Virus genome (UHGV): UHGV-2078504
DNA: 27,255 nucleotides
Source of the DNA: a virus
Reading direction: 5' to 3' (one strand)
In this document: positions 3,391 through 18,759 of the stretch, piece after piece
Layout: every line of letters begins with the position of its first letter
Position numbering within the stretch: the stretch's first letter is position 1
Made by a program: the position numbers and the translations under genes
Notes under the pieces: generated by a model
Seen by the model: only the letters and a program-made list of their open reading frames with translations
Told to the model about the DNA's origin: nothing
Databases searched by the model: none

Positions 3391-4188
3391 ATGCCCCTGG
3401 CAAAAATACTTACAAAACAAGTTTCTTTATTAACTGTTTTTTCAGCGTTAGCTTATGCGATGGCATATTCTTTTCAGAAAGGTGTTGCATCGTATTATGG
3501 CTATCCAGCCCTTTTTATTAAAATAGATTTAAATACGCTATTGTATTCGGCTGTATGGCTTTTGTTTTTTAGTTTTTTATTTCTCGGTGCCTTATACGCG
3601 ACATTGATGTTTGATTTGAAAGGGAAATATTATGTTCCATTTATTATATTTATAGTGGTTATGCTAATACCTAATTTTTACATAATAGGATTTCATTGGC
3701 CTTTTGGTTATTTCTCCGAAACCTCTGTGATGAGTGTTGGAGATATTTTATTATTTGCTCTGCTTTTGTTGAATTACCACAATGCGGTGTCCGCGTCAAT
3801 CCATAGTAAGAGACACGAACATCATATGGATAGCATTAGAAAGTTTGGGAGGCTTGCAGAGTATAAAGACGTATTTTATTATATCGATTTAAAAATCCTA
3901 AAATCAGCTTTTCCTTTAGGGGTGATGACATTATTGATATTGAGCTATACCTTCGGGAAGGTTACTGCATTTAAAAATAACGAATATTATATGGTAGATG
4001 GTAGTAATACTAAAGTGTTGCTCAATTCATTTGGTAGTGGTTTTGTTGTTGGTGATTGTGAGTCCAATAGCGCAAAATTTGAATTTGTTAATGATTTAAA
4101 AGGGATGAAATTCACAGTTATGTCCTCTAAAAAGGAAATAGCTAAATTAAAAGAGTGTTTCGAAACACGTGTTAAAAATACGGATTAA
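3391..4188 (+). CDS. Hypothetical AT-rich membrane protein (moron; N-terminal multi-TM region plus C-terminal soluble domain)
   Basis: 265-aa ORF with GGAGG Shine-Dalgarno 5-6 nt upstream; several hydrophobic helices (VSLLTVFSALAYAMAY, LLYSAVWLLFFSFLFLGALYATLMF, VPFIIFIVVMLIPNFYIIGF, ILLFALLLLNY); strongly AT-rich compared with flanking genes; opposite strand to the surrounding operon. Confidence 0.65.
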   Translation: MPLAKILTKQVSLLTVFSALAYAMAYSFQKGVASYYGYPALFIKIDLNTLLYSAVWLLFFSFLFLGALYATLMFDLKGKYYVPFIIFIVVMLIPNFYIIGFHWPFGYFSETSVMSVGDILLFALLLLNYHNAVSASIHSKRHEHHMDSIRKFGRLAEYKDVFYYIDLKILKSAFPLGVMTLLILSYTFGKVTAFKNNEYYMVDGSNTKVLLNSFGSGFVVGDCESNSAKFEFVNDLKGMKFTVMSSKKEIAKLKECFETRVKNTD

Positions 4189-4200
4189 AGCATAAGTCTT

Positions 4201-4488
4201 TTATCTTTTATTGCGGCTTAAAATAATTTCCTCCAGATTTTTGCTATCCAGCACCACCACGGTAAAGCCCAGCTCGCGCAGCCGCTCGTGCTCGCGCAAC
4301 TGGTCGGCGCGTGGTGCTTTGCCGGGTGCTTTGCATTCAACGAAAACAAGACGGCCGCCGGGTAGCAGAACAATGCGATCCGGTACCGAGCGGCGACCGG
4401 GAGATACGAACTTAAAGGCCACACCGCCAGCCTTTTTCACTTCAGCGACGAGGTGCTTTTCGATAAGGCTCTCACGTTCATAAGACAT
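4201..4488 (-). CDS. VRR-NUC domain nuclease
   Basis: 95-aa ORF with PD-(D/E)xK-like core (PDRIVLLPGGRLVFVECKAPGK); GC-rich like the core operon; family commonly partners SNF2 helicases in phage replication modules. Confidence 0.7.
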   Translation of the reverse strand: MSYERESLIEKHLVAEVKKAGGVAFKFVSPGRRSVPDRIVLLPGGRLVFVECKAPGKAPRADQLREHERLRELGFTVVVLDSKNLEEIILSRNKR

Positions 4489-4548
4489 AAATTTGCCTTG
4501 TTAACACTTATTGGGTAGTATCAAATAAAACAAGTATAAGGAATTAAT

Positions 4549-5577
4549 ATGTCACGAATCTTATTTCCCTCTTCATGTAATCCTGAAAAGATATTTAATT
4601 TTTGCAATGAAATTGAAAAACATTCAGGTCAACAGCAAATAACAATCGATTTTTCGCATATGGGAAGGATTGAACCATTTACAATGGTTTATGTTGCTAA
4701 GCATATTCGAGACTTCCATCGAAAACAGAAAAAGAACATTGATGGTTTTAAACTTTTTTGTAGCGGGCATGAGAATAAGGATTATGCCGCAAATATGGCA
4801 TTCTTTCGAGCCTTCGGGTTAAAGCATGGCCGTGAACCGGGATGTACAGATGGAAATAATAATTTTGTTCCATTTACAATTCTTCGTGTTCAAACAGTTA
4901 TAGATGAAGCTAACGATAAATATACTGAGGTGCAAGAGATAGTTGAGGAACGATCTGGTAAATTAGCAAAGATTCTTGCTCGCCAAGAAGAAGGCGACCT
5001 CATTGATGCTTTGACATTTTCTATTAGGGAAATTATGCGTAATGTTGTGGAACATAGTGATTCAAAGGTGATTGAATATTGTGCACAGTATTGGCCTTCT
5101 TATGACCGTGTTGAAATAACAATTTCTGATAATGGTATAGGAATGAAAAAATCTCTATCGAAGAACCCTTATATAGAAGCTGATAATGATTCTGAAGCCA
5201 TTCAGTTAGCGTTAATGCCATCTATTTCTAGTAAAAATTTTAAGGGGGCGAGAATCAATACAAGAAATCCTTGGCATAATTCGGGATTTGGCCTTTATAT
5301 GATCAGCCGTATATGTAAACTTGGCGGTAGTTTTCTTATTTGTAGCGGTGACCATGCAATATATCTAGATGAACACGGAAAGAAGCATATAGAGTTAGGT
5401 CATTATCATGAAGGAACTGTCGTTAGAATGGTGTTGAATACTAAAAAACTTGGTTCCTTAAGCTCAATGCTTACGCAGTTTAAGGAGGATGGCTACAAAA
5501 TAGCTGCAGAAATAAAACATACTGGAGTTTATACAGCATCAGCTGCTTCGCAGATGTTATCTAGGGATTTTAAGTGA
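4549..5577 (+). CDS. Hypothetical protein with C-terminal GHKL/histidine-kinase-like ATPase domain (moron)
   Basis: 342-aa AT-rich ORF; C-terminal half carries N-box-like REIMRNVVEHS, G1 box ISDNGIGM and G2 box NSGFGLYMISRI characteristic of HATPase_c (histidine kinase/anti-sigma-factor kinase/GHKL) folds; N-terminal ~110 aa of unknown function. Confidence 0.7.
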   Translation: MSRILFPSSCNPEKIFNFCNEIEKHSGQQQITIDFSHMGRIEPFTMVYVAKHIRDFHRKQKKNIDGFKLFCSGHENKDYAANMAFFRAFGLKHGREPGCTDGNNNFVPFTILRVQTVIDEANDKYTEVQEIVEERSGKLAKILARQEEGDLIDALTFSIREIMRNVVEHSDSKVIEYCAQYWPSYDRVEITISDNGIGMKKSLSKNPYIEADNDSEAIQLALMPSISSKNFKGARINTRNPWHNSGFGLYMISRICKLGGSFLICSGDHAIYLDEHGKKHIELGHYHEGTVVRMVLNTKKLGSLSSMLTQFKEDGYKIAAEIKHTGVYTASAASQMLSRDFK

Positions 5578-5584
5578 CTTTGTA

Positions 5585-7648
5585 TTACTCCTTACGGTAG
5601 TGGTACGCCTCAAAGCCGCCAGCATTCAGCGGAATATCGGGTGCCCATTCGGGGTTAGTGGAGAGAAGCGCGGAAAGCGCTTTATCGTTGAAATCTTCTG
5701 TGTCAGGTGCTTCGGTGATCACCTCGTCGTGTACCGTCAGCACAATGCTGTAACCGGCATCTTCGATAAGCGGCATGTTTCCGGCCAGAATGTCGCGGGC
5801 GGCCGCCTGGGTGATGTTCTCCACCAGCTTTCCGCCGTAGGTTTTGAGTCGTTGCCATTTACGCGAATAAGAGTTAACCCCCATGTAGGTGATATTCCCT
5901 TTTTCGATAACCGGAGACGGGTAGCATACAGCGCGTCCGGATGGTAGCTGTATGCGCAGCCACGCGCCATCGCGGCGGATTTTAAGATAACCGCAATACA
6001 ATGTTTTTTGCGGTGTGGCGATTGCAGTGCGGACGGTGCGCTCCAGTTCGTACCAGAAATCACAGGTCGCGGGATGCGCCCGGCGCCAGAGACGTTTAAG
6101 TGAGTCGCAGGCGATAAATACCCGTTCAGAAAGCCCGTAGGTTGACTTGCGTTTAACCGATTCGTCGTACCAGCTTTTCGCCTCGCGGATAACATCGCGG
6201 GGAATGTTTGGTAGTGCGGCGTTCGCCAGCTCGTCGAGATCGAGACCGTAAACCAGTGCAAAAGTGATGAAGGCCGACACACCACCACCATAACCCAGAC
6301 CGAGTTCCATGACTTTACCGATCTGACGCATGTGTTTATCAACATCATCTGGTGCAATATCGAAAGCTTTTGCATACGCCAGTTTATATAAGTCCGGACC
6401 CGTTCCGGCGTCGTACTCTCTGAATGCATTCAGTTTCCATTCTTCTCCCGCCAGCCATGCCAGCATACGGCCTTCAATGTTCGACAAGTCACTTACCACC
6501 AGCTTTTTGCCTGTTGGCGCGATAATGCAGCCACGTAACGCTGAACTGGTTAGTTCCATGATATTGTCAAACAGCAGGTCTGCACATCCGGCTTTCAGTG
6601 CTTCGATGCCTTCGTCTATTTGTTCCTGTTTTAGTGAAGGGCGGGGAAGGTTCTGGGGCTGGAATAGCCGTCCGGCCCAACGACCGGTACGTGACGCCCC
6701 GCAGAACTGTAGCGTACCGCGTAAGCGCCCGTCGTGGCTTACGCCTTTCATCAGTGCCTTGTATTTACTGGTGCTGGTAGTACTGGCCTGCAGGCGGATA
6801 GCCAGCAGTTCTTTCACGGCAGATGGTAAATCGGGGTCGGCAATACGACGTTCCAGAGTACTGCGTTGCATGTCTGGTAGCTCCACACCGTAGGATTCAA
6901 CAATGTGCTTAATCAACGCGTCTCGTTGTGTGGCTGCCTGCACTTCGCCATCAGTCATTTCCTGTGTACGCTTTGCCAGGCGCTTTTGTTCCTGGTCTAC
7001 CACGTCGATCGCAGCGCGTGCGAGTTCCACGTCCATGCAGACGCCCCGGTCATTGATCTGCTGATCACGATGCCAGAGCGCCAGTTCTGTCCCCTGATAA
7101 TTCCACTTCGGCAGACGTTTATAGACTTCGCGCATTGCCTCGATATCCAGTCCGGCGTAAGCAACAAAGCGCCGCCATTCTTCCGGGTGGGTTTTGCTGG
7201 TGGCCCGGCGCAGTTTGCTGTTTTTCGGGCGTGGCTTACAGAACAGCTGGATCAGCGCTTTACCTTCTTTGTCCTTCGCTTTGTCTTGCGGGACGCCTAG
7301 TACTTCGCAGAGTTCCCCCAGAGACCCCGGGAGACCGTGCGCCAGCGCCTGCACCATTGTGTCGCGCCAACGTTCGACTGGCGGTGCTAGGCGCGGCATT
7401 GCATAACGCAGGACGGTGCGGTCGAAGTGAGAGTTATGAAAATAAAGTAGGGTTTCAGGGGCTGCGATTGCTTCGTATAAGCCGTGTGGAATACCACCAC
7501 CGGCAGTGATATCCCACACGTTTACTGGTCCGTCGTTGATAGCCCATGCGAAAAGCATCACTTCAACGCCTTCGGCATACGCATGGGTACCGTTCGTAAT
7601 AGGGATTTCGCAATAGGTTTCCAGGTCGCCCCATAGTATATTGGACAT
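5585..7648 (-). CDS. Family A DNA polymerase with N-terminal 3'-5' exonuclease domain
   Basis: 687-aa ORF; Exo I-like WGDLETYCE; polymerase motif [12 protein letters not shown], motif [13 protein letters not shown], motif C LTVHDEV. Confidence 0.85.
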
Positions 7649-7694
7649 GTGTTTACCTTGGTTTTTATTCTATTAACTGATTAAAAGATTAATT

Positions 7695-8324
7695 ATGCAT
7701 ATGATCCAATACTTGATTGACCATACAGAGCATCTGGAGAAAATAGCTGGATATATTTTTTCATGTTTGATTGTTATGGGAGTCTGGATAAGAAAGATCA
7801 TTTTTAATTATAAGTATAAAGAGCCTAAATATGTCAAGAAGTTAATTTTATATTTAATTAAGTATGAACGTTATCTGGATAAGGAGGATAAGAAAGCCAT
7901 AGAAAAAAGAATAAATGATAAAATTATTCGTGATGCGCTGAAATTGCAATCCTCTTATAACCGAAGTGATGTTATTTACATTTGCAATAGATTAGAAAAA
8001 AGACAGTATATAAATCAGTTGATTAAGCTTCAGAATTATATAGAGAAAGATAACGGAGTGTTTTTTATTAATGTTGATTTTTCAGGTTTTTTATTTATTG
8101 TTAGTCGTCTGTTTTCCTTTCTGTGTTTTGTGCTGTTTACCCTTTTTTCTATTATCTGCATTATTTCCATAGGGCAAAATGAAGGCCTTTTAAATTATCT
8201 TGTGTATATGGTTATGATAATAGTTTTAGAGACTGTTGGTTTTTGGATGTATGATACTTTCCCGTCTAAGAAAAAGATCTGTGAACTAAATAAAGAATTG
8301 AGAAAGATTAAGATTCCTGAGTGA
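7695..8324 (+). CDS. Hypothetical AT-rich membrane protein (moron)
   Basis: 209-aa, very AT-rich ORF on the opposite strand to the operon; N-terminal TM helix (IAGYIFSCLIVMGVWI), lysine-rich soluble segment, then two or three C-terminal TM helices (FLFIVSRLFSFLCFVLFTLFSIICIISIG, LVYMVMIIVLETVGFWMY). Start could be 7695 or 7701. Confidence 0.6.
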   Translation: MHMIQYLIDHTEHLEKIAGYIFSCLIVMGVWIRKIIFNYKYKEPKYVKKLILYLIKYERYLDKEDKKAIEKRINDKIIRDALKLQSSYNRSDVIYICNRLEKRQYINQLIKLQNYIEKDNGVFFINVDFSGFLFIVSRLFSFLCFVLFTLFSIICIISIGQNEGLLNYLVYMVMIIVLETVGFWMYDTFPSKKKICELNKELRKIKIPE

Positions 8325-8342
8325 TTATACGCCTAATCAGTA

Positions 8343-8361
8343 GCCCGGTGTTTAACCGGGC
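8343..8361. terminator. Stem-loop between convergent genes (possible bidirectional terminator)
   Basis: GCCCGGT-gttta-ACCGGGC perfect 7-bp inverted repeat between the end of the 7695-8324 gene and the end of the 8377-8925 gene; no clear U-tract on either strand. Confidence 0.3.
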
Positions 8362-8376
8362 GTCTATGAAGTAGGG

Positions 8377-8925
8377 TTAAATTAGTGCTTCAGCATCAGC
8401 ACCTTCGCTGATATCGTCGAAATCGTCAGCGCTTGCCACTCCGCCGCCAGCGAATGCATCGCCGTCTCGCAGGAACTGGACTCCGCCGAGTGAGGCATTA
8501 ATGCGTTTACCGAAATTATTGTCCTGTGCCCAGATATCGATAACGGCGTTTACATAGCACCCTGCATAGGGACGTCCGTCAGCCTGAATAAGTGGCGAAC
8601 GATCGCGATCAAGAACAGCTGGGCGCGCTTTGTTAGCAGCATTCAGGAAGAAATTACCGGGGAAGCCTTCATACTCTGCTTTTTCATCACCATCATGCAG
8701 GCACAGATTGAGTTTTTTCTCCAGCTGGTTATAAATGGGCTCCCACTTCTCTCCCCATTTTTCCTTCGCTACCTGCTTCATAGCTTTACGGATTTCTTCC
8801 AGTTGTGGGTGTTTGGGTGACATTAAAAATACTGCGGAGAAACGTGGATCGCCTTCGCCGTTTACAGTTTTAGCTTCAAACAGAGACGGGAAGGCCAGAC
8901 GAACATTGTTCAGCTTCAGTTTCAT
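8377..8925 (-). CDS. DUF2815-like phage protein, putative ssDNA-binding protein
   Basis: 182-aa ORF in replication module beginning MKLKLNNVRLAFPSLFE; acidic C-terminal tail ...DDFDDISEGADAEALI resembling SSB/gp2.5-type interaction tails. Family assignment is from memory. Confidence 0.55.
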   Translation of the reverse strand: MKLKLNNVRLAFPSLFEAKTVNGEGDPRFSAVFLMSPKHPQLEEIRKAMKQVAKEKWGEKWEPIYNQLEKKLNLCLHDGDEKAEYEGFPGNFFLNAANKARPAVLDRDRSPLIQADGRPYAGCYVNAVIDIWAQDNNFGKRINASLGGVQFLRDGDAFAGGGVASADDFDDISEGADAEALI

Positions 8926-8940
8926 GGGTATTTCCTTAAA

Positions 8941-10242
8941 TCAGATGAGGTCTGCGGTTAGCGTATCGTCGGATACGTCGTCGAAATCATTTACAGGGTT
9001 GATATTGAGTGCGGGGCGTGGGTCTGACTCGGGAACGACGGTGGGTTTACCATCAGCTCGTGTTATCAGTGCCTCGACTTTTGACCAACGGCGCGGACTG
9101 GCCTTTTTGATAAGTTTTTCGGCTTTTGTGGGACTAATAAGTTTAAAGTCGAATACTTCTTCAGTTTTGTACCTGAACTGGTCCTTCAGAAGTGCGCGAG
9201 CTGCCTCTTCATCACTCCAGGCCCGGTTACCTTGTTTTCCTGTTACCAGTTTAAACCCCGGTACCGGATGTCCGGCATTGAGTTCATTGTGAACCCGGTC
9301 CCGTACTGCCTTTAGCCAGGATTCAATAAAGTCGGCCTGGCTATAGATCTCCGCAAGCTGCTCAATGGTTAACAGAGGTACACGTGCGCTGGCATTGGTG
9401 ATTATTTCGCTGACAGGCTTTGTCAGATCTTCAAAGTCGCTGGCCGCTGTTTGTAAATGCTGCATTTTCTGGGCAGTGCAAATAGCTTTTGCTTTACAGA
9501 AGCGGCACTGTTTTTCTCCAGGTATGAAGTTTTCCAGCGGTAGTGTCTCAATGCCTTCGCATTCAGCAATATTGAGAACAAGGATCGCACTGGTTGCGGC
9601 CTCCTGTGCCCGTTCACCGAAAGACTGAAGTTCCTGTACGGTTAATGACCATTCTGAAACGTGGTTGAGCCTTGGCTGGTGAATAAATAATCTTACAGTC
9701 TCAAAGTCATACAGCATGCTGAATTGTTCGAGCGCACCCAGAGCATACAGTTGTAGTTGCTCATTTTGTTCTGCATCAATGCGGACGCCTTTGCCATATT
9801 TCAGGTCGTGGATTTGTAATTCGTTACCAGCGATGATTATGCCGTCGGCAGTTCCGAAAGATTCTTCCACCCCCGTTATATGTGAGAAATCAACACGTTG
9901 TTCAACCAATAGTTCATTATTCTGTGCAAGAGTCCAGACCGTATCAACATACCGGCCAACGGCTTCGACCATTTCATCATCCACCTGTGGGCCAGATGTA
10001 TTATCAGGATTTTCGCGAAGGGGGTATGAGCCGAGAAACATAGAAACATTGCATCCGGCGTAGTGTTCCGGGTGGCTTTGCCTGTTTCGTAGAACTTTTT
10101 CAGCAAGCGCGTGCGCTGCAGTGCCCTCGATTGCAAAAGTTGTTTCTTTATCCGGTTGTGTGGCCTCCAGCGCCAGACTTCCTGGGCAGCGCATCCATCG
10201 ATGCGCTGATGATGGAGAAAGTTGTGCATGAACGTCTGGCAT
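8941..10242 (-). CDS. DUF2800-like PD-(D/E)xK nuclease with Cas4-like cysteine cluster
   Basis: 433-aa ORF; N-terminal [15 protein letters not shown], nuclease-like core (IHDLKYGKG), C-terminal cysteines [10 protein letters not shown]; acidic C-terminal tail ...[15 protein letters not shown]. Confidence 0.65.
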
Positions 10243-16392: not shown

Positions 16393-16670
16393 GTTGAATT
16401 TCTGACCTCAACGAAGAGCTCCAAATCATTGGGGCTTTTTTAATGCTCTATTCTCAGTAAAAGTTAATAAAACAGGGTTTTCGTCGCGAAAAAACGCTAT
16501 GCAGTTTTTGCCCTTTTTTATGCACCTTTTATTCACTCGAATTTCGTCATTCTGGACCACTTAAGTTGATTAAATAGGCCTTTCATCGCAAATCTATTGC
16601 GAGCGGTGATCGTGTGGTTCCTATAACGTACATTATGTTAAATAACTTCCTTTTTTAACAAATTTAACAA
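16393..16670 (+). promoter_or_regulatory. Expected Q-dependent late promoter/qut region (position not resolved)
   Basis: By analogy with lambda PR'/qut lying just downstream of Q; long AT-rich non-coding stretch between Q and the holin. No promoter elements confidently identified. Confidence 0.3.
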
Positions 16671-16694
16671 GGTTCGCTATGGCGAACTTTTTTT
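16671..16694 (+). terminator. Putative intrinsic terminator (tR'-like) in late leader
   Basis: GGTTCGC-tat-GGCGAAC hairpin followed by TTTTTTT. Confidence 0.4.
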
Positions 16695-16795
16695 GTATTC
16701 AGGGCCCACCGAAGGACGGCTCATAACCCAATCCTACGGGCGTATACGCAGGGCCCGCCTTTCAACAACACCCCGTAATGGCGGAGGTGGGAAGT

Positions 16796-17137
16796 ATGAA
16801 AATGCACAATGCTCCTCATTCCTGGCCTGACTTACTGGAACTCTTACAAAGTTGGTGGCGTGGAGATACGCCGTTGGGCGCAGTGGTTATGTCAATTGTT
16901 ATGGCTGGCTTGCGCATTGCCTATTTTGGCGGTGGCGGCGGCTGGAAACGAAAAACGCTTGAGATTTTGCTCTGTGGTGCTCTGACGCTGACCTTTGCAT
17001 CCGCTCTTGAGTATGTTGGATGGCCTAAATCTCTTTCTGTTGCCATTGGTGGTGGTGTTGGGCTGATCGGTGTCGATGCTATTCGTGGGGCTGCAATGCG
17101 AGTAATCGGTAACAAGTTTGGTGGCTCTAAGGAGTAA
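16796..17137 (+). CDS. Holin (probable dual-start motif MKM)
   Basis: ORF with three hydrophobic segments immediately upstream of the endolysin; GGAGGTGGG Shine-Dalgarno precedes ATG-AAA-ATG (16796 and 16802), reminiscent of the lambda S dual-start arrangement. The longest ORF starts at 16778. Confidence 0.7.
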   Translation: MKMHNAPHSWPDLLELLQSWWRGDTPLGAVVMSIVMAGLRIAYFGGGGGWKRKTLEILLCGALTLTFASALEYVGWPKSLSVAIGGGVGLIGVDAIRGAAMRVIGNKFGGSKE

Positions 17138-17140
17138 TTC

Positions 17141-17617
17141 ATGCAGACACTAAATTCCCAACGTAAAGCTTTCCTGGATATGGTGGCATGGTCAGAAGGA
17201 ACGGATAACGGGCGACAACCGACACGTAATCACGGTTATGACGTTATCGTCGGAGGTGAGTTGTTCACTGATTACTCCGATCACCCTCGCAAACTTGTCA
17301 CGCTAAACCCGAAGCTTAAATCAACAGCTGCAGGCCGGTATCAGCTTCTTTCACGCTGGTGGGATGCCTACCGCAAGCAGCTTGGCCTGAAAGATTTTTC
17401 GCCAGAAAATCAGGACGCTGTGGCGCTGCAGCAGATTAAAGAGCGTGGCGCTTTACCGATGATTGACCGTGGCGATATTCGTCAGGCAATCGACCGTTGC
17501 AGCAATATCTGGGCGTCGTTACCTGGTGCAGGTTACGGTCAGTATGAACATAAAATCGGTGACCTGATTTCCAGGTTTAAAGATGCTGGTGGGGTGGTAA
17601 ATGAAGCTGACTTATAA
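17141..17617 (+). CDS. R: Endolysin, lambda R-type lytic transglycosylase
   Basis: 158-aa product is near-identical over most of its length to phage lambda R as recalled (NSQRKAFLDMVAWSEGTDNGRQPTRNHGYDVIVGGELFTDYSDHPRKLVTLNPKLKST...). Confidence 0.9.
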   Translation: MQTLNSQRKAFLDMVAWSEGTDNGRQPTRNHGYDVIVGGELFTDYSDHPRKLVTLNPKLKSTAAGRYQLLSRWWDAYRKQLGLKDFSPENQDAVALQQIKERGALPMIDRGDIRQAIDRCSNIWASLPGAGYGQYEHKIGDLISRFKDAGGVVNEADL

Positions 17618-18125
17618 GATTGTCATCGCGGCATTTTTCTTCTCTGTCTTTGGGGCGCTCGTCTGGTCTGCAAACCATTACCACAGCAAGTATCAGGCAG
17701 AAAAGTTGCGGGCTGATAAAGCGGAAGGTGAAGCTGAATATCAAGGGAAAGTGATAGCTAATCAGGCATTAAACTTCAATCGTTTTAACCAGATAGCAGA
17801 AAACGCAAGCCGATTAAATTCTCTGGTCGACATCGATCACGAGAAGACAGTCATCAAATACCGTGAGGTTCTGCTCCGTGAAAAGAACTGTGATTTCCCT
17901 GTTCCTGTTGATATTGCTGTCGGGTTGCTCAACTACGCGAACCGTTTACGCGCCAGCGCATTGCACGCCGATTCCGGGGACATTGACTCAGTCGGTGATC
18001 GTGCCACTACCACCAGAACGTTGACATATTGCCAGGCTGTTCTGTGGATTAACCCACTGTTGGCAGCCATCGAGAAGGCGAATAACCAGTTGGCTGGTGT
18101 CCGACAAATAGAACAGTCCCGGTAA
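17601..18125 (+). CDS. Rz: Rz-like inner-membrane spanin (i-spanin)
   Basis: 174-aa ORF overlapping the endolysin stop, N-terminal TM helix (IVIAAFFFSVFGALVWS) then coiled-coil periplasmic domain; contains an embedded +1-frame lipoprotein ORF. Confidence 0.75.
   Translation: MKLTYKIVIAAFFFSVFGALVWSANHYHSKYQAEKLRADKAEGEAEYQGKVIANQALNFNRFNQIAENASRLNSLVDIDHEKTVIKYREVLLREKNCDFPVPVDIAVGLLNYANRLRASALHADSGDIDSVGDRATTTRTLTYCQAVLWINPLLAAIEKANNQLAGVRQIEQSR
17878..18024 (+). CDS. Rz1: Rz1-like outer-membrane lipoprotein spanin (o-spanin), embedded in Rz in the +1 frame
   Basis: Hand translation from GTG 17878: (M)KRTVISLFLLILLSGCSTTRTVYAPAHCTPIPGTLTQSVIVPLPPER, stop TGA 18022-18024; lipobox LLSGC, proline-rich mature part; GAGG 9 nt upstream. 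Confidence 0.6.
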   Translation: MKRTVISLFLLILLSGCSTTRTVYAPAHCTPIPGTLTQSVIVPLPPER

Positions 18126-18186
18126 TAGCATTACAGAAGCTCTTCCAGGAGGGGCTTCGATAATGACCTGATAACTGGAAAATAAA

Positions 18187-18759
18187 ATGACTAAGAAGCT
18201 GAAAGCAAAACACGAGGTGTTTTGTCGCGAGTTTCTTGTCGATCTGAATGCTACACAAGCAGCTATTCGCGCAGGCTATGCCTCCAGGCGAGCACATGTT
18301 ACGGGGGCTGAACTATATGGTAAACCTGAGATACGCGCCCGCATTAACGAGCTAAAGCAGGAGCGTATTGATCAACTGGGCATTGATGCGAATTATGTGC
18401 TAATGCGACTGGTTGAGATCGACAGGCTCGATGTGGCTGACATCCTGGAGGACGATTTAAGTATTAAGCCTCTGTCTGCGTGGCCGGAATCGTGGCGTCG
18501 GTACCTGAGTGGATTTAACCTCGCTGAAATGTTTGAGGGGCGAGGAGATGACAGAGAAATGGTCGGGCTCCTTAAAAAGATTAAGTGGCCTGATAAGGTT
18601 AAAAACCTTGAGTTGCTTGGGCGCCATGTTTCTGTTCAGGCGTTTAAAGACAACGTCAAAAATGAAGTGACTGGCGCTGATGGAGGACCAGTCAGAACAG
18701 AAATTACCAACTTAACGCCGGAGCAGGCTGCAGAGGCGTATAGAAAAATGATGGGGTGA
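18187..18759 (+). CDS. terS: Terminase small subunit
   Basis: 190-aa ORF with N-terminal FCREFLVDLNATQAAIRAGY motif typical of terminase small subunits; precedes the large subunit. Confidence 0.75.
   Translation: MTKKLKAKHEVFCREFLVDLNATQAAIRAGYASRRAHVTGAELYGKPEIRARINELKQERIDQLGIDANYVLMRLVEIDRLDVADILEDDLSIKPLSAWPESWRRYLSGFNLAEMFEGRGDDREMVGLLKKIKWPDKVKNLELLGRHVSVQAFKDNVKNEVTGADGGPVRTEITNLTPEQAAEAYRKMMG

Follow-up and report, generated by a model that had tools for sequence, protein, structure and literature searches.

In the window analysed here, a 27,255-nucleotide stretch of virus genome UHGV-2078504, a cargo hotspot separates the VRR-NUC nuclease and PolA genes and is filled by a horizontally acquired single-gene cassette. 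Its product, a protein of 342 aa, is a single chain that combines the two halves of a partner switch, the STAS domain and the anti-sigma-type kinase. Reading from sequence and predicted structure, we tentatively favour the explanation that this horizontally mobile cassette encodes a one-chain partner-switching module, which would be expressed in the lysogen and act on the transcription machinery. The features are listed in table 1.

Table 1. Position of the cassette, its gene, the encoded domains and motifs, and the flanking genes in the window.
Feature	Position	Strand	Remarks
VRR-NUC nuclease gene, left flank, phage early operon	4201..4488	-	RefSeq annotation of identical XH993 locus
Swapped cassette (gene + 60-bp upstream region)	4489..5568	+	1.08 kb; blastn vs sister prophage L002
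Candidate sigma-70 promoter, TTGCCT-17 nt-TAGTAT	4493..4521	+	Read from sequence; 8/12 match
Ribosome-binding site, AAGGA	4538..4542	+	6 nt 5' of ATG
Cassette-gene CDS	4549..5577	+	342 aa, ATG start; STAS-like domain + helical linker + RsbW/SpoIIAB-type GHKL kinase domain + Ser-rich tail
N-terminal STAS-like domain, aa 1-113	4549..4887	+	Invariant P43 at helix 2 N-cap
Helical linker, aa 114-150	4888..4998	+	AF2 helices 114-124, 128-144
GHKL (Bergerat-fold) kinase/ATPase domain, aa 151-300	4999..5448	+	
N box, E161-x3-N165-x3-H169-S170	5029..5058	+	E161, R164, N165, H169 invariant
G1 box, D194-N-G196-I-G198	5128..5142	+	D194, G196, G198 invariant
G2 box/ATP-lid end, N244-S-G246-F-G248-L249	5278..5295	+	N244, G246, G248, L249 invariant
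Conserved predicted-disordered C-terminal tail, Y328-x-ASAASQMLSRDF341	5530..5571	+	pLDDT <50
Family-A DNA polymerase gene (polA), right flank	5585..7648	-	Convergent with cassette gene

A foreign gene in a variable prophage slot

The host element is an E. coli prophage adjoining yfhL, and the cassette lies inverted within its early/replication operon. A sequence-only reading of the window had described an opposite-strand ORF of 342 aa wedged between the VRR-NUC and polymerase genes, and we found it exactly as claimed; 552 word-indexed homologues and 1716 HMMER matches place this ORF well beyond chance. The low G+C content relative to the operon was also reproduced, at 26.4% for the first 72 nt of the gene against a mean of 54.4% for 72-nt windows of polA. 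The entire gene has 36.1% G+C (GC3 26.8%) and polA 54.2% (GC3 56.8%); taken together, the flanking VRR-NUC and PolA genes stand at 54% versus 36% for the cassette gene, and the cassette as a whole (4489-5568) has a G+C fraction of 0.356. An Rfam scan of the window yielded no matches.

When the window was compared by blastn with the sister prophage L002 (FDAARGOS_144), whose flanks are 98% identical, homology stopped at 4488 and restarted at 5569; L002 carries DUF4406 and ANR genes where the cassette sits. These breaks, along with slot contents that differ between prophages, bear out the suggestion that the gene is a horizontally acquired moron. As expected of such an element, near-identical prophages occur with and without the gene, the boundaries are sharp and the composition is deviant; the promoter is a weak consensus match. 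In other prophages the VRR-NUC/PolA slot is filled by DUF4406 plus ANR, by DUF7446, by a TIR protein or by a SAM methyltransferase; in all, at least five cargo sets other than the gene were seen there. This alternative cargo, methyltransferases among it, is encoded on the operon strand. The comparison of related prophages that had been proposed as a check on the slot thus returned mostly different cargo, with the gene present in 8 of approximately 160 E. coli genomes that have the flanks (copies 99.7-100% identical). A 75%-identical copy occupies the same slot in a Serratia prophage. The VRR-NUC/PolA junction and two neighbouring slots are a cargo hotspot of this prophage family that is worth mining. 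The other two AT-rich ORFs on the + strand of the window were considered as partners and rejected: they show no homology to downstream genes elsewhere and sit in their own, independently variable slots.

A STAS-like domain joined to a GHKL kinase domain

The protein belongs to the GHKL/Bergerat-fold superfamily and has a complete ATP site with conserved motifs. All of the sequence motifs picked out by eye were located, with EIMRNVVEHS at residue 161, ISDNGIGM at 192, NSGFGLYMISRI at 244 and QQITIDF... at 29. The assignment of HATPase_c boxes to the C-terminal half was confirmed by Pfam, where HATPase_c (PF02518) matched residues 155-295 with 32.5 bits (E=1.3e-7), above the gathering cut-off of 26.4 bits; HATPase_c_2 scored 24.4 bits, under its 27.4-bit cut-off. 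The invariance of the N, G1 and G2 boxes given in table 1 was scored across 52 sequences at 31-68% identity. The ATP lid (residues 228-247) was modelled with low pLDDT. RsbW/SpoIIAB kinases are the nearest structural neighbours of the domain, and serine/threonine kinase chemistry would be expected rather than pure ATPase activity. Family profiles run against PDB sequences gave nothing significant, the best hit (E=0.17) being to N-box segments of histidine kinases, and a BFVD structure search gave no characterised match.

That this is not a classical two-component kinase, as had been argued from the lack of adjacent partner genes, holds on several counts. Pfam found no HisKA/DHp domain in the protein, the alignments contain no conserved histidine in the linker (residues 114-150), and nothing of the response-regulator, HPt or HisKA kind is encoded next to the cassette gene. 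NCBIfam histidine-kinase equivalogs scored 12-15 bits, against cut-offs of 350-700.

For the N-terminal domain, an earlier impression of a STAS-like fold was supported by structural comparison: the domain has a STAS fold, and its structural relatives include STAS antagonists. Pfam STAS, STAS_2 and DUF4325 gave no match at E<=0.01, and hhalign of the family profile was non-significant for both SpoIIAA (E=0.31) and RsbV (E=0.46). The helix spanning residues 43-63 starts with an invariant proline, P43, which aligns with S58 of SpoIIAA by the non-significant hhalign match (E=0.31) and by an inferred secondary-structure register. STAS antagonists have a phosphorylatable Ser/Thr at the start of helix alpha-2, within a DS(S/T)G motif; judged from this alignment, a phospho-acceptor serine of that kind appears to be missing here. 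At the other end of the protein, the C-terminal tail is invariant in the close clade. Its serines S331 and S334, which would be the predicted autophosphorylation sites, keep at least 90% conservation among the divergent sequences.

Expression signals

The match of the candidate promoter is under the scanner threshold of 9/12, and a promoter scan of the region detected no signal above shuffled background. The copies of ET490, TUM14664 and Kluyvera retain the corresponding hexamers (TTGTCT/TAGCAT), including where an IS1 adjoins approximately 58 nt upstream, and the AGG of the ribosome-binding site is invariant across five enterobacterial copies. The cassette probably has its own weak promoter. 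Combined with the inverted orientation, such a promoter would allow the gene to be expressed in a lysogen whose operon is repressed. A constant inverted orientation was not found in other phages, opposite-strand genes lying on both sides of the gene in 6 of 24 viral loci. The stop codons of the cassette gene and polA are convergent and 7 nt apart, a gap that leaves no room for a terminator; a terminator scan was at background level and found no terminator-like site at this junction.

Distribution and conservation of the family

Clustering of the family at 50% identity (E<1e-30) gave at least 336 clusters, nearly all of 330-350 aa with full-length matches. Across many phyla the gene is found in prophages, on genomic islands and near defence genes. 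The protein falls in phrog_3364 (PHROGs v4), its residues 2-300 matching profile positions 5-292 of 304 (E=2.5e-33). Family members were present on 25 IMG/VR viral contigs, 16 of which had the gene within 4 kb of the contig end (8.1 expected, P ~7e-4). The majority of homologues are chromosomal and outside recognisable phages. In 29 of 33 loci the G+C fraction of the gene was more than 0.05 below that of distant flanks. The E. coli islands of ET490 and TUM14664 have kept an intact ORF, next to phage genes that are either missing or annotated as fragments.

We obtained dN/dS values of 0.044-0.047, a sign of purifying selection; a ratio of about 0.045 together with catalytic residues that are invariant across phyla shows sustained selection on the activity of the protein. 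Identity remains at approximately 65% across classes. Conservation of this kind is unusual for an immune sensor. A C-terminal Tudor-like extension is present in 11 of 149 representatives (approx. 7%), one of which, P0167, scores 28.7 bits on PcrA_UvrD_tudor (cut-off 23.9 bits). The Tudor domain of PcrA/UvrD contacts RNA polymerase (PMC5397179, PMC8318588). The window's own protein has no Tudor domain. In the literature on STAS/HATPase anti-phage proteins, RsbW in prophage defence and DUF4325, we found no description of the family; a match in the literature on GHKL proteins and prophage defence has a different architecture.

Genomic neighbourhood

Neighbouring ORFs, up to three per side, were clustered for 51 loci, and no conserved neighbour gene emerged. 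The sole cluster with more than two members, a NOV_C gene in four closely related Rhodobacteraceae loci, was rejected as a conserved partner; it is convergent with the family gene and hence not an operon partner. We also considered an ATPase paired with a variable downstream effector, an idea that arose from PD-(D/E)xK-like and Rx4H motifs seen by eye in Pseudomonas and Shewanella downstream genes. Pfam gave nothing for these, the same-strand downstream genes elsewhere encode an epimerase, an AIR-synthase-like protein and a polyketide cyclase, and the idea was rejected. No gene for a sigma factor, a separate STAS antagonist or a PP2C phosphatase was present in 12 Pfam-annotated loci or among the top families of 224 neighbour ORFs.

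Defence genes recur nearby: Zorya plus a methyltransferase; OLD-TOPRIM with UvrD (Gabija-like); AbiEi, AAA_13 and type I R-M; GmrSD; dptFG; GHKL-Shedu (locus L030); and DRT-type reverse transcriptases, NOV_C, PtuA and DpdF. Many loci have housekeeping neighbours (epimerase, AIR-synthase-like gene, ferrochelatase, ribonucleotide reductase), and IS elements and transposases often adjoin the gene. The defence association of the family loci, counted without a control, is anecdotal.

No function is annotated for the family, and PADLOC v2 places it in no named defence family beyond a partial match to DrmA, in keeping with the failure of the sequence-only reading to assign one. That match covers positions 65-207 of 1750, the N-terminus of one long model (E=2.9e-8). 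DrmA is a large helicase protein, with helicase and DUF1998 domains, encoded within a drm operon. Membership of DrmA/DISARM was rejected, as the match is partial, the 342-aa protein has no helicase domain and no drm genes are nearby. The PADLOC 'DrmC' model matched the HTH of an IS3 transposase, so such matches can be generic.

Possible functions

In the mechanism that we tentatively favour, the STAS domain and/or the tail would cover the partner-binding face of the kinase in cis in the resting state. Infection, stress or a similar cue would displace them, and the freed kinase would bind or phosphorylate a cellular target that is highly conserved, with the transcription machinery (a sigma factor or RNA polymerase) as the most plausible candidate. 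An infecting phage might thereby be stalled or the host reprogrammed, to the benefit of the lysogen. We infer here the expression in lysogens, the autoinhibition, the target and the defence phenotype, and the case for a defence or sigma-factor function is circumstantial. In favour of the explanation are the cassette boundaries and variable slot, the invariant active site, the stand-alone architecture, the foreign and mobile character of the gene and the selection on it. The recurrent defence neighbours and the TIR protein among the alternative cargo of the slot count for a defence reading and the Tudor extension of some members for a link to transcription. Against these stand several observations. 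The housekeeping neighbours in many loci and the absence of a PADLOC match beyond the partial DrmA one count against defence, and the identity maintained across classes against an immune sensor. The non-significant alignment behind the pairing of P43 with SpoIIAA S58 is a further weakness. The operon-strand cargo, whose methyltransferases resemble phage-offensive genes, counts against protection of the lysogen. The lack of a Tudor domain in the window's protein weighs against the transcription model, and the 8/12 promoter with its background-level scan against the favoured explanation as a whole. A bolder version is possible and, in our view, rather doubtful: the protein would be the first known member of an anti-phage system made of one gene, in which infection releases a self-contained switch, a STAS sensor/autoinhibitor fused to an RsbW-type kinase, that shuts down transcription by phosphorylating or sequestering RNA polymerase or a sigma factor. 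So conserved a target would explain why the family varies unusually little in sequence.

The gene could instead be a lysogenic-conversion regulator, an anti-sigma-like kinase that retunes the stress or stationary-phase regulon of the host without blocking other phages. The structural kinship with anti-sigma kinases and their STAS antagonists suits this reading, as do the high conservation (expected for a conserved host target), the RNA polymerase-binding Tudor extension in some members, the ordinary neighbours of many chromosomal copies and an inverted orientation compatible with expression in the lysogen. We consider it unlikely, because no sigma-factor or PP2C-phosphatase gene was found at the 12 annotated loci, the canonical phospho-serine appears to be absent, and the gene recurs beside defence systems, is AT-rich and foreign almost everywhere and has a patchy distribution, unlike a domesticated regulator.

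Kinases can also serve phage offence: Gp0.7 of phage T7 phosphorylates and disables host proteins. A comparable counter-defence role, disabling host proteins or immunity during lytic growth or induction, would fit the location in the early/replication region, the methyltransferases of the same slot (which would protect phage DNA) and the carriage of the family by the 25 viral contigs and phrog_3364. It is made distinctly unlikely by the strand, opposite to the early operon and head-on with polA across the 7-nt gap, so that operon transcription would oppose the cassette gene. The island copies ET490 and TUM14664 likewise keep an intact ORF despite fragmentary or absent flanking phage genes, and most homologues are not in recognisable phages at all.

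We give less credence again to a GHKL ATPase clamp or switch that would, like MutL, MORC, paraMORC or Hsp90, use ATP to dimerise and so act on DNA or a client protein. GHKL domains have been proposed to regulate nucleases in Shedu type I-D, as in VcSduA (PMC12137116). The protein here falls outside the MORC/paraMORC/MutL-type GHKL class and Shedu type I-D; no HATPase_c_3, S5 or nuclease domain was matched in its 342 aa, and neither Pfam nor PADLOC matched DUF4263/SduA_C, SduA or TmtA on it.

Selfish or neutral cargo, addiction-like or hitch-hiking and of benefit to neither phage nor host, would account for the patchy occurrence (8 of about 160 related prophages) and the frequent adjoining IS elements and transposases. 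This is highly improbable given the dN/dS of about 0.045, the catalytic residues invariant across phyla and the lack of an antitoxin-like partner. Finally, the idea that the gene is a conserved part of the phage replication module and present in all relatives, such as an ATPase fragment of a clamp loader or topoisomerase (the outcome named beforehand as fatal to the moron hypothesis), has its position in the replication gene cluster as sole support and is effectively refuted, since approximately 95% of prophages sharing the module at 92-98% identity lack the gene (only 8 of some 160 related E. coli prophages having it), its strand is opposite and its composition foreign, its folds are STAS and RsbW-like rather than clamp-loader or topoisomerase, and most homologues lie outside phages.

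Comparison with known systems

Partner switching, in which a STAS antagonist works with an RsbW/SpoIIAB kinase, regulates alternative sigma factors and is normally multi-gene and chromosomally fixed. In SpoIIAB/RsbW/UsfX and SpoIIAA/RsbV the two are separate proteins, whereas here kinase and STAS domain form one polypeptide, with the STAS domain N-terminal. Compared with SpoIIAA/RsbV, the phospho-serine position appears to be an invariant proline. Compared with SpoIIAB/RsbW, there is an extra conserved Ser-rich tail and no sigma-factor or PP2C gene nearby, and a mobile, AT-rich gene takes the place of a core regulon gene. In Rv1364c of M. tuberculosis, PAS and PP2C domains are combined with a STAS domain that lies C-terminally and bears a phosphorylatable serine. 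Rv1364c is likewise a multidomain partner switch, with RsbU, RsbW and RsbV fused in one chain (PDB 3ke6), but the protein described here lacks the phosphatase and PAS domains, has the reverse domain order and is phage- and island-borne. The stressosome (the STAS scaffold RsbR/RsbS with the kinase RsbT) and SiaB/SiaC of P. aeruginosa (PMC8457831) are multi-protein, multi-gene systems with dedicated phosphatases, in contrast to the single gene here; the STAS partners of both carry a phospho-acceptor Ser/Thr.

Among defence proteins, Shedu type I-D/paraMORC3 (VcSduA), bacterial MORC and Tiamat TmtA similarly bring a GHKL domain onto mobile elements and defence islands, in their case a HATPase_c_3-type GHKL domain combined with a nuclease or transducer domain. 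Tiamat TmtA is a GHKL and NOV_C protein. The relatives in phrog_3364 are phage-borne too, in a group that carries no functional annotation. If the protein is a defence or host-control kinase, it would represent a new signalling logic in the conflict of phage and host and could lead to a conserved target in the cell, which might be RNA polymerase. Should the anti-phage reading be true, immune signalling would have co-opted the logic of anti-sigma partner switching as lysogen-protective prophage cargo. What sets this protein apart is that both halves of a partner switch are fused within 342 aa and travel as a foreign single gene through prophages and islands.

The cassette gene occupies a variable slot of the prophage

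The sequence-only reading placed an AT-rich open reading frame between the VRR-NUC and DNA polymerase genes, on the strand opposite to the operon. This is borne out: the cassette gene starts at an ATG, 6 nt downstream of the ribosome-binding site AAGGA, and its G+C content is 26.4% over the first 72 nt and 36.1% overall, against 54.2% for polA (GC3 26.8% versus 56.8%). The cassette gene and polA converge, their stop codons 7 nt apart, with no terminator-like structure at the junction, so each gene's transcription must run antisense into the other, and transcriptional interference between the moron and early-operon expression is possible.

Features of the window and of compared loci
Feature	Locus	Coordinates	Strand	Description
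Cassette gene	window	4549-5577	+	342 aa
VRR-NUC gene	window	4201-4488	−	95 aa, flank
polA	window	5585-7648	−	family-A DNA polymerase, 687 aa, flank
Convergent stops	window	5577-5585		cassette gene/polA junction
Mobile unit	window	4489-5568		gene plus 60 bp upstream
265-aa ORF	window	3391-4188	+	33% G+C, SNF2/VRR-NUC slot
209-aa ORF	window	7695-8324	+	29% G+C, PolA/DUF2815 slot
DUF2800 nuclease gene	window	8941-10242	−	433 aa, intact
DUF2800 nuclease gene	L001 (XH993)	16542-18620		split by IS1
Allele in SNF2/VRR-NUC slot	L002 (FDAARGOS_144 sister)	5104-5814		divergent
Allele in SNF2/VRR-NUC slot	L005 (Serratia)	6801-7559		divergent
TIR-domain protein	L070 (E. coli JNEC-KY180)	5217-5978	operon strand	253 aa
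Class I SAM methyltransferase	L071	4759-5241		slot cargo in other E. coli genomes
IS3-family transposase	L012 (Kluyvera)	7590-8525		HTH_Tnp_1 + rve
GHKL-Shedu protein	L030 (Pseudomonas MAG)	7095-8858		587 aa, HATPase_c_3 + SduA_C

Over the interval compared (4201-5900), the window matches E. coli XH993 and further isolates from humans at 100% identity; in these chromosomes the interval belongs to a prophage inserted next to yfhL. The genes run in the order integrase and HTH regulator, SNF2 helicase, the + strand 265-aa ORF, VRR-NUC, the cassette gene (a + strand ATP-binding protein), PolA, the + strand 209-aa ORF, DUF2815 ssDNA-binding protein and DUF2800/PD-(D/E)xK, with a LexA-type repressor, VapE and antiterminator Q further on. 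As the DUF2800 gene is intact in the window and interrupted in XH993, the window derives from another strain that has the same prophage.

A sister prophage in FDAARGOS_144 shares the attachment site, and both its flanks are 98% identical to the window. Homology stops at the VRR-NUC start codon, precisely at 4488, and restarts at 5569; between these breakpoints the sister has, on the operon strand, genes for DUF4406 and ANR. These breakpoints therefore define the mobile unit. Among approximately 160 E. coli genomes carrying the flanks, the slot most commonly holds ANR with DUF4406; other sets are ANR with DUF7446, a SAM methyltransferase with ANR, ANR only, and ANR with a hypothetical protein and a TIR-domain protein, while eight genomes hold the cassette gene. 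The slot thus acts as a hotspot for cargo, the gene is no conserved component of replication, and the proposal of a horizontally acquired, moron-like insert stands. In a Serratia prophage that is approximately 70% identical at the nucleotide level, the same slot contains a cassette gene of 75% identity. The TIR-domain protein replaces the cassette in two E. coli genomes.

Two neighbouring slots also hold AT-rich inverted ORFs. The 265-aa ORF has an N-terminal half that by eye is strongly hydrophobic, has no match in Pfam, PADLOC or NCBIfam, and is represented in the sister and Serratia prophages by alleles of 25-27% identity; speculatively, a rapidly evolving membrane protein, for example one for superinfection exclusion, would show these features. 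The 209-aa ORF, by eye hydrophobic at its C-terminus, matches phrog_10579 (E=1e-106, function unknown); other family prophages have different + strand ORFs in its slot, some with a Nmad5 nucleotide-modification gene as well. Cargo thus occupies three independent slots in the early operon.

Domain architecture and conservation

The HATPase_c boxes recognized by eye lie at residues 161, 192 and 244, and the Pfam HATPase_c model scores 32.5 bits against a gathering threshold of 26.4; the RsbW/SpoIIAB-type model HATPase_c_2 falls just under its threshold (24.4 versus 27.4 bits). The tentative suggestion of a STAS-like N-terminal fold proved correct, and no STAS profile matched the protein. Both partners of a partner-switching pair are combined in one chain. 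The evidence speaks against a histidine kinase, there being neither a HisKA/DHp domain nor a conserved His in the helical linker (residues 114-150), and against a MutL/MORC-type ATPase, since the approximately 42 residues remaining after the GHKL core leave no transducer/S5 domain.

A word-indexed search yielded 552 homologues and an exhaustive HMMER search 1716 at E<1e-3. At E<1e-30 there were 336 representatives of 50%-identity clusters, nearly all 330-350 aa with full-length matches. The close clade extends across Gamma- and Betaproteobacteria, takes in genomes of Desulfobulbales, Chlorobiales and Sulfurimonadaceae, and is approximately 65% identical throughout. Positions invariant among 52 sequences of 31-68% identity are P43, E161, R164, N165, H169, D194, G196, G198, P224, N244, G246, G248, L249 and G289; these include the whole ATP-binding apparatus along with one STAS-domain proline. 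P43 caps the N-terminus of a long helix (43-63) that follows strand 30-34, at what appears to be the structural position of the SpoIIAA/RsbV phospho-acceptor serine; hhalign pairs it, non-significantly, with SpoIIAA S58. We infer that the STAS domain has lost the canonical phospho-site. Disorder is predicted for the C-terminal tail, Y328-x-ASAASQMLSRDF, which is invariant in the close clade, with S331 and S334 at least 90% conserved family-wide; speculatively, it could accept phosphate or act in autoinhibition. One 699-aa member (P0121), with an unknown 360-aa N-terminal extension, lies between transposases and adjoins a WGR-domain gene (L065).

Genomic context across the family

No conserved neighbour gene was found among 51 loci from many phyla, and a variable downstream effector was rejected, several same-strand downstream genes being housekeeping genes. 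The gene is more than 5 points more AT-rich than distant flanks in 29 of 33 loci (mean G+C 41.7% versus 52.3%), even in genomes of 65-72% G+C. In IMG/VR, relatives occur on 25 viral contigs, and 16 of these relatives sit no more than 4 kb from the end of their contig (8.1 expected, P ~7×10⁻⁴); compared with other viral loci, the inverted orientation is specific to the window's phage lineage. Defence neighbours include Zorya with a methyltransferase; a Gabija-like OLD-TOPRIM/UvrD pair; AbiEi, AAA_13 and type I R-M; GmrSD; dptFG; a GHKL-Shedu gene; and DRT-type reverse transcriptases, NOV_C, PtuA and DpdF. Neighbours at many other loci are ordinary, and the association with defence genes is suggestive only. 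At four related Rhodobacteraceae loci (L044, L046, L047, L050) a convergent NOV_C/DUF3883 gene, matching the PADLOC PDC-S36, TmtA and PD-T4-1 models, lies downstream of the family member at a distance of 72-73 nt. Two different GHKL proteins are adjacent in a Pseudomonas MAG, where a defence protein of the GHKL-Shedu/paraMORC3 type begins 69 nt downstream of the family member.

Proposed function and rival explanations

A C-terminal extension of approximately 50 residues is present in 11 of 149 cluster representatives (about 7%), with one or two PcrA/UvrD-type Tudor-like repeats (P0137, P0142, P0165, P0167, P0168, P0182, P0183, P0212, P0213, P0225 and P0253). Eight carry the signature V-x-H-x-x-[FWY]-G-x-G-x-[VIL] strictly and three in relaxed form; P0167 scores 28.7 bits with PcrA_UvrD_tudor (gathering score 23.9), and three more members score weakly. 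In PcrA/UvrD, the Tudor domain is the part that interacts with RNA polymerase (PMC5397179, PMC8318588). Taken with the anti-sigma-kinase fold and conservation high enough for a conserved cellular target, the extension points to the transcription machinery as the target, a link that is indirect because the window's own protein has no Tudor domain.

On the best-supported reading, the cassette would be an accessory gene, expressed in the lysogen, whose product is a single-chain partner switch. An RsbW-type kinase would be held in cis by the STAS domain and/or the Ser-rich tail; a cue would free it to act on a conserved target by binding or phosphorylation and so protect the lysogen, the target probably being RNA polymerase or a sigma factor. 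This reading as a whole is tentative, somewhat short of an even chance. The same kinase could instead be a regulator in lysogenic conversion, which we consider unlikely; a defence role is plausible but circumstantial.

Copies in E. coli ET490 and Kluyvera, 83-84% identical, span window positions 4289-5673, including 200 nt of the VRR-NUC 5′ part and 96 nt of the polA 3′ end; in TUM14664 the match begins at 4493, adjoining an IS1 element. All three have IS elements around them, within a tRNA-Thr island (dptFG adjoins in ET490), and look like prophage remnants. The E. coli island copies keep the cassette frame intact, with VRR-NUC a frameshifted annotated fragment or absent and polA at most a 96-nt stub. 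From these sequences, the gene may be kept independently of a functional phage, with the caveat that much of the divergence may pre-date decay. A phage offensive or counter-defence kinase is improbable. A GHKL ATPase switch that is not a kinase is a little more doubtful. Against remnant and IMG/VR copies the window's gene has dN/dS of 0.044-0.047 at dS ~0.9-1.0, which shows strong purifying selection; selfish or neutral cargo is very improbable. A replication-module component, named by the sequence-only reading as the finding that would overturn it, is effectively refuted by the gene's presence in only eight of the flank-carrying genomes. The structural and evolutionary interpretation in that reading is supported.

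Comparison with known systems

Searches of PADLOC, NCBIfam and the literature gave no named family, and PHROGs lists the protein only as phrog_3364, function unknown. By the features tested it fits none of MORC or paraMORC, DrmA, Shedu, Tiamat and histidine kinase; the DrmA match was discounted because some PADLOC models capture generic domains. The PADLOC 'DrmC' model PDLC02590 matches the Kluyvera transposase (E=3.6e-58). The cassette gene would be a mobile, single-gene, fused partner-switching kinase, one of a large, uncharacterized and strongly conserved mobile family of unusual architecture that is cleanly testable by simple experiments. It resembles the RsbW/SpoIIAB-RsbV/SpoIIAA modules but, unlike them, is not accompanied by genes for a sigma factor, a PP2C phosphatase or a separate STAS protein at the 12 Pfam-annotated loci and, unlike SpoIIAA/RsbV, apparently lacks the canonical phospho-Ser. 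Rv1364c (fused), the stressosome and SiaB/SiaC set precedents both for a fusion and for outputs that are not sigma factors.
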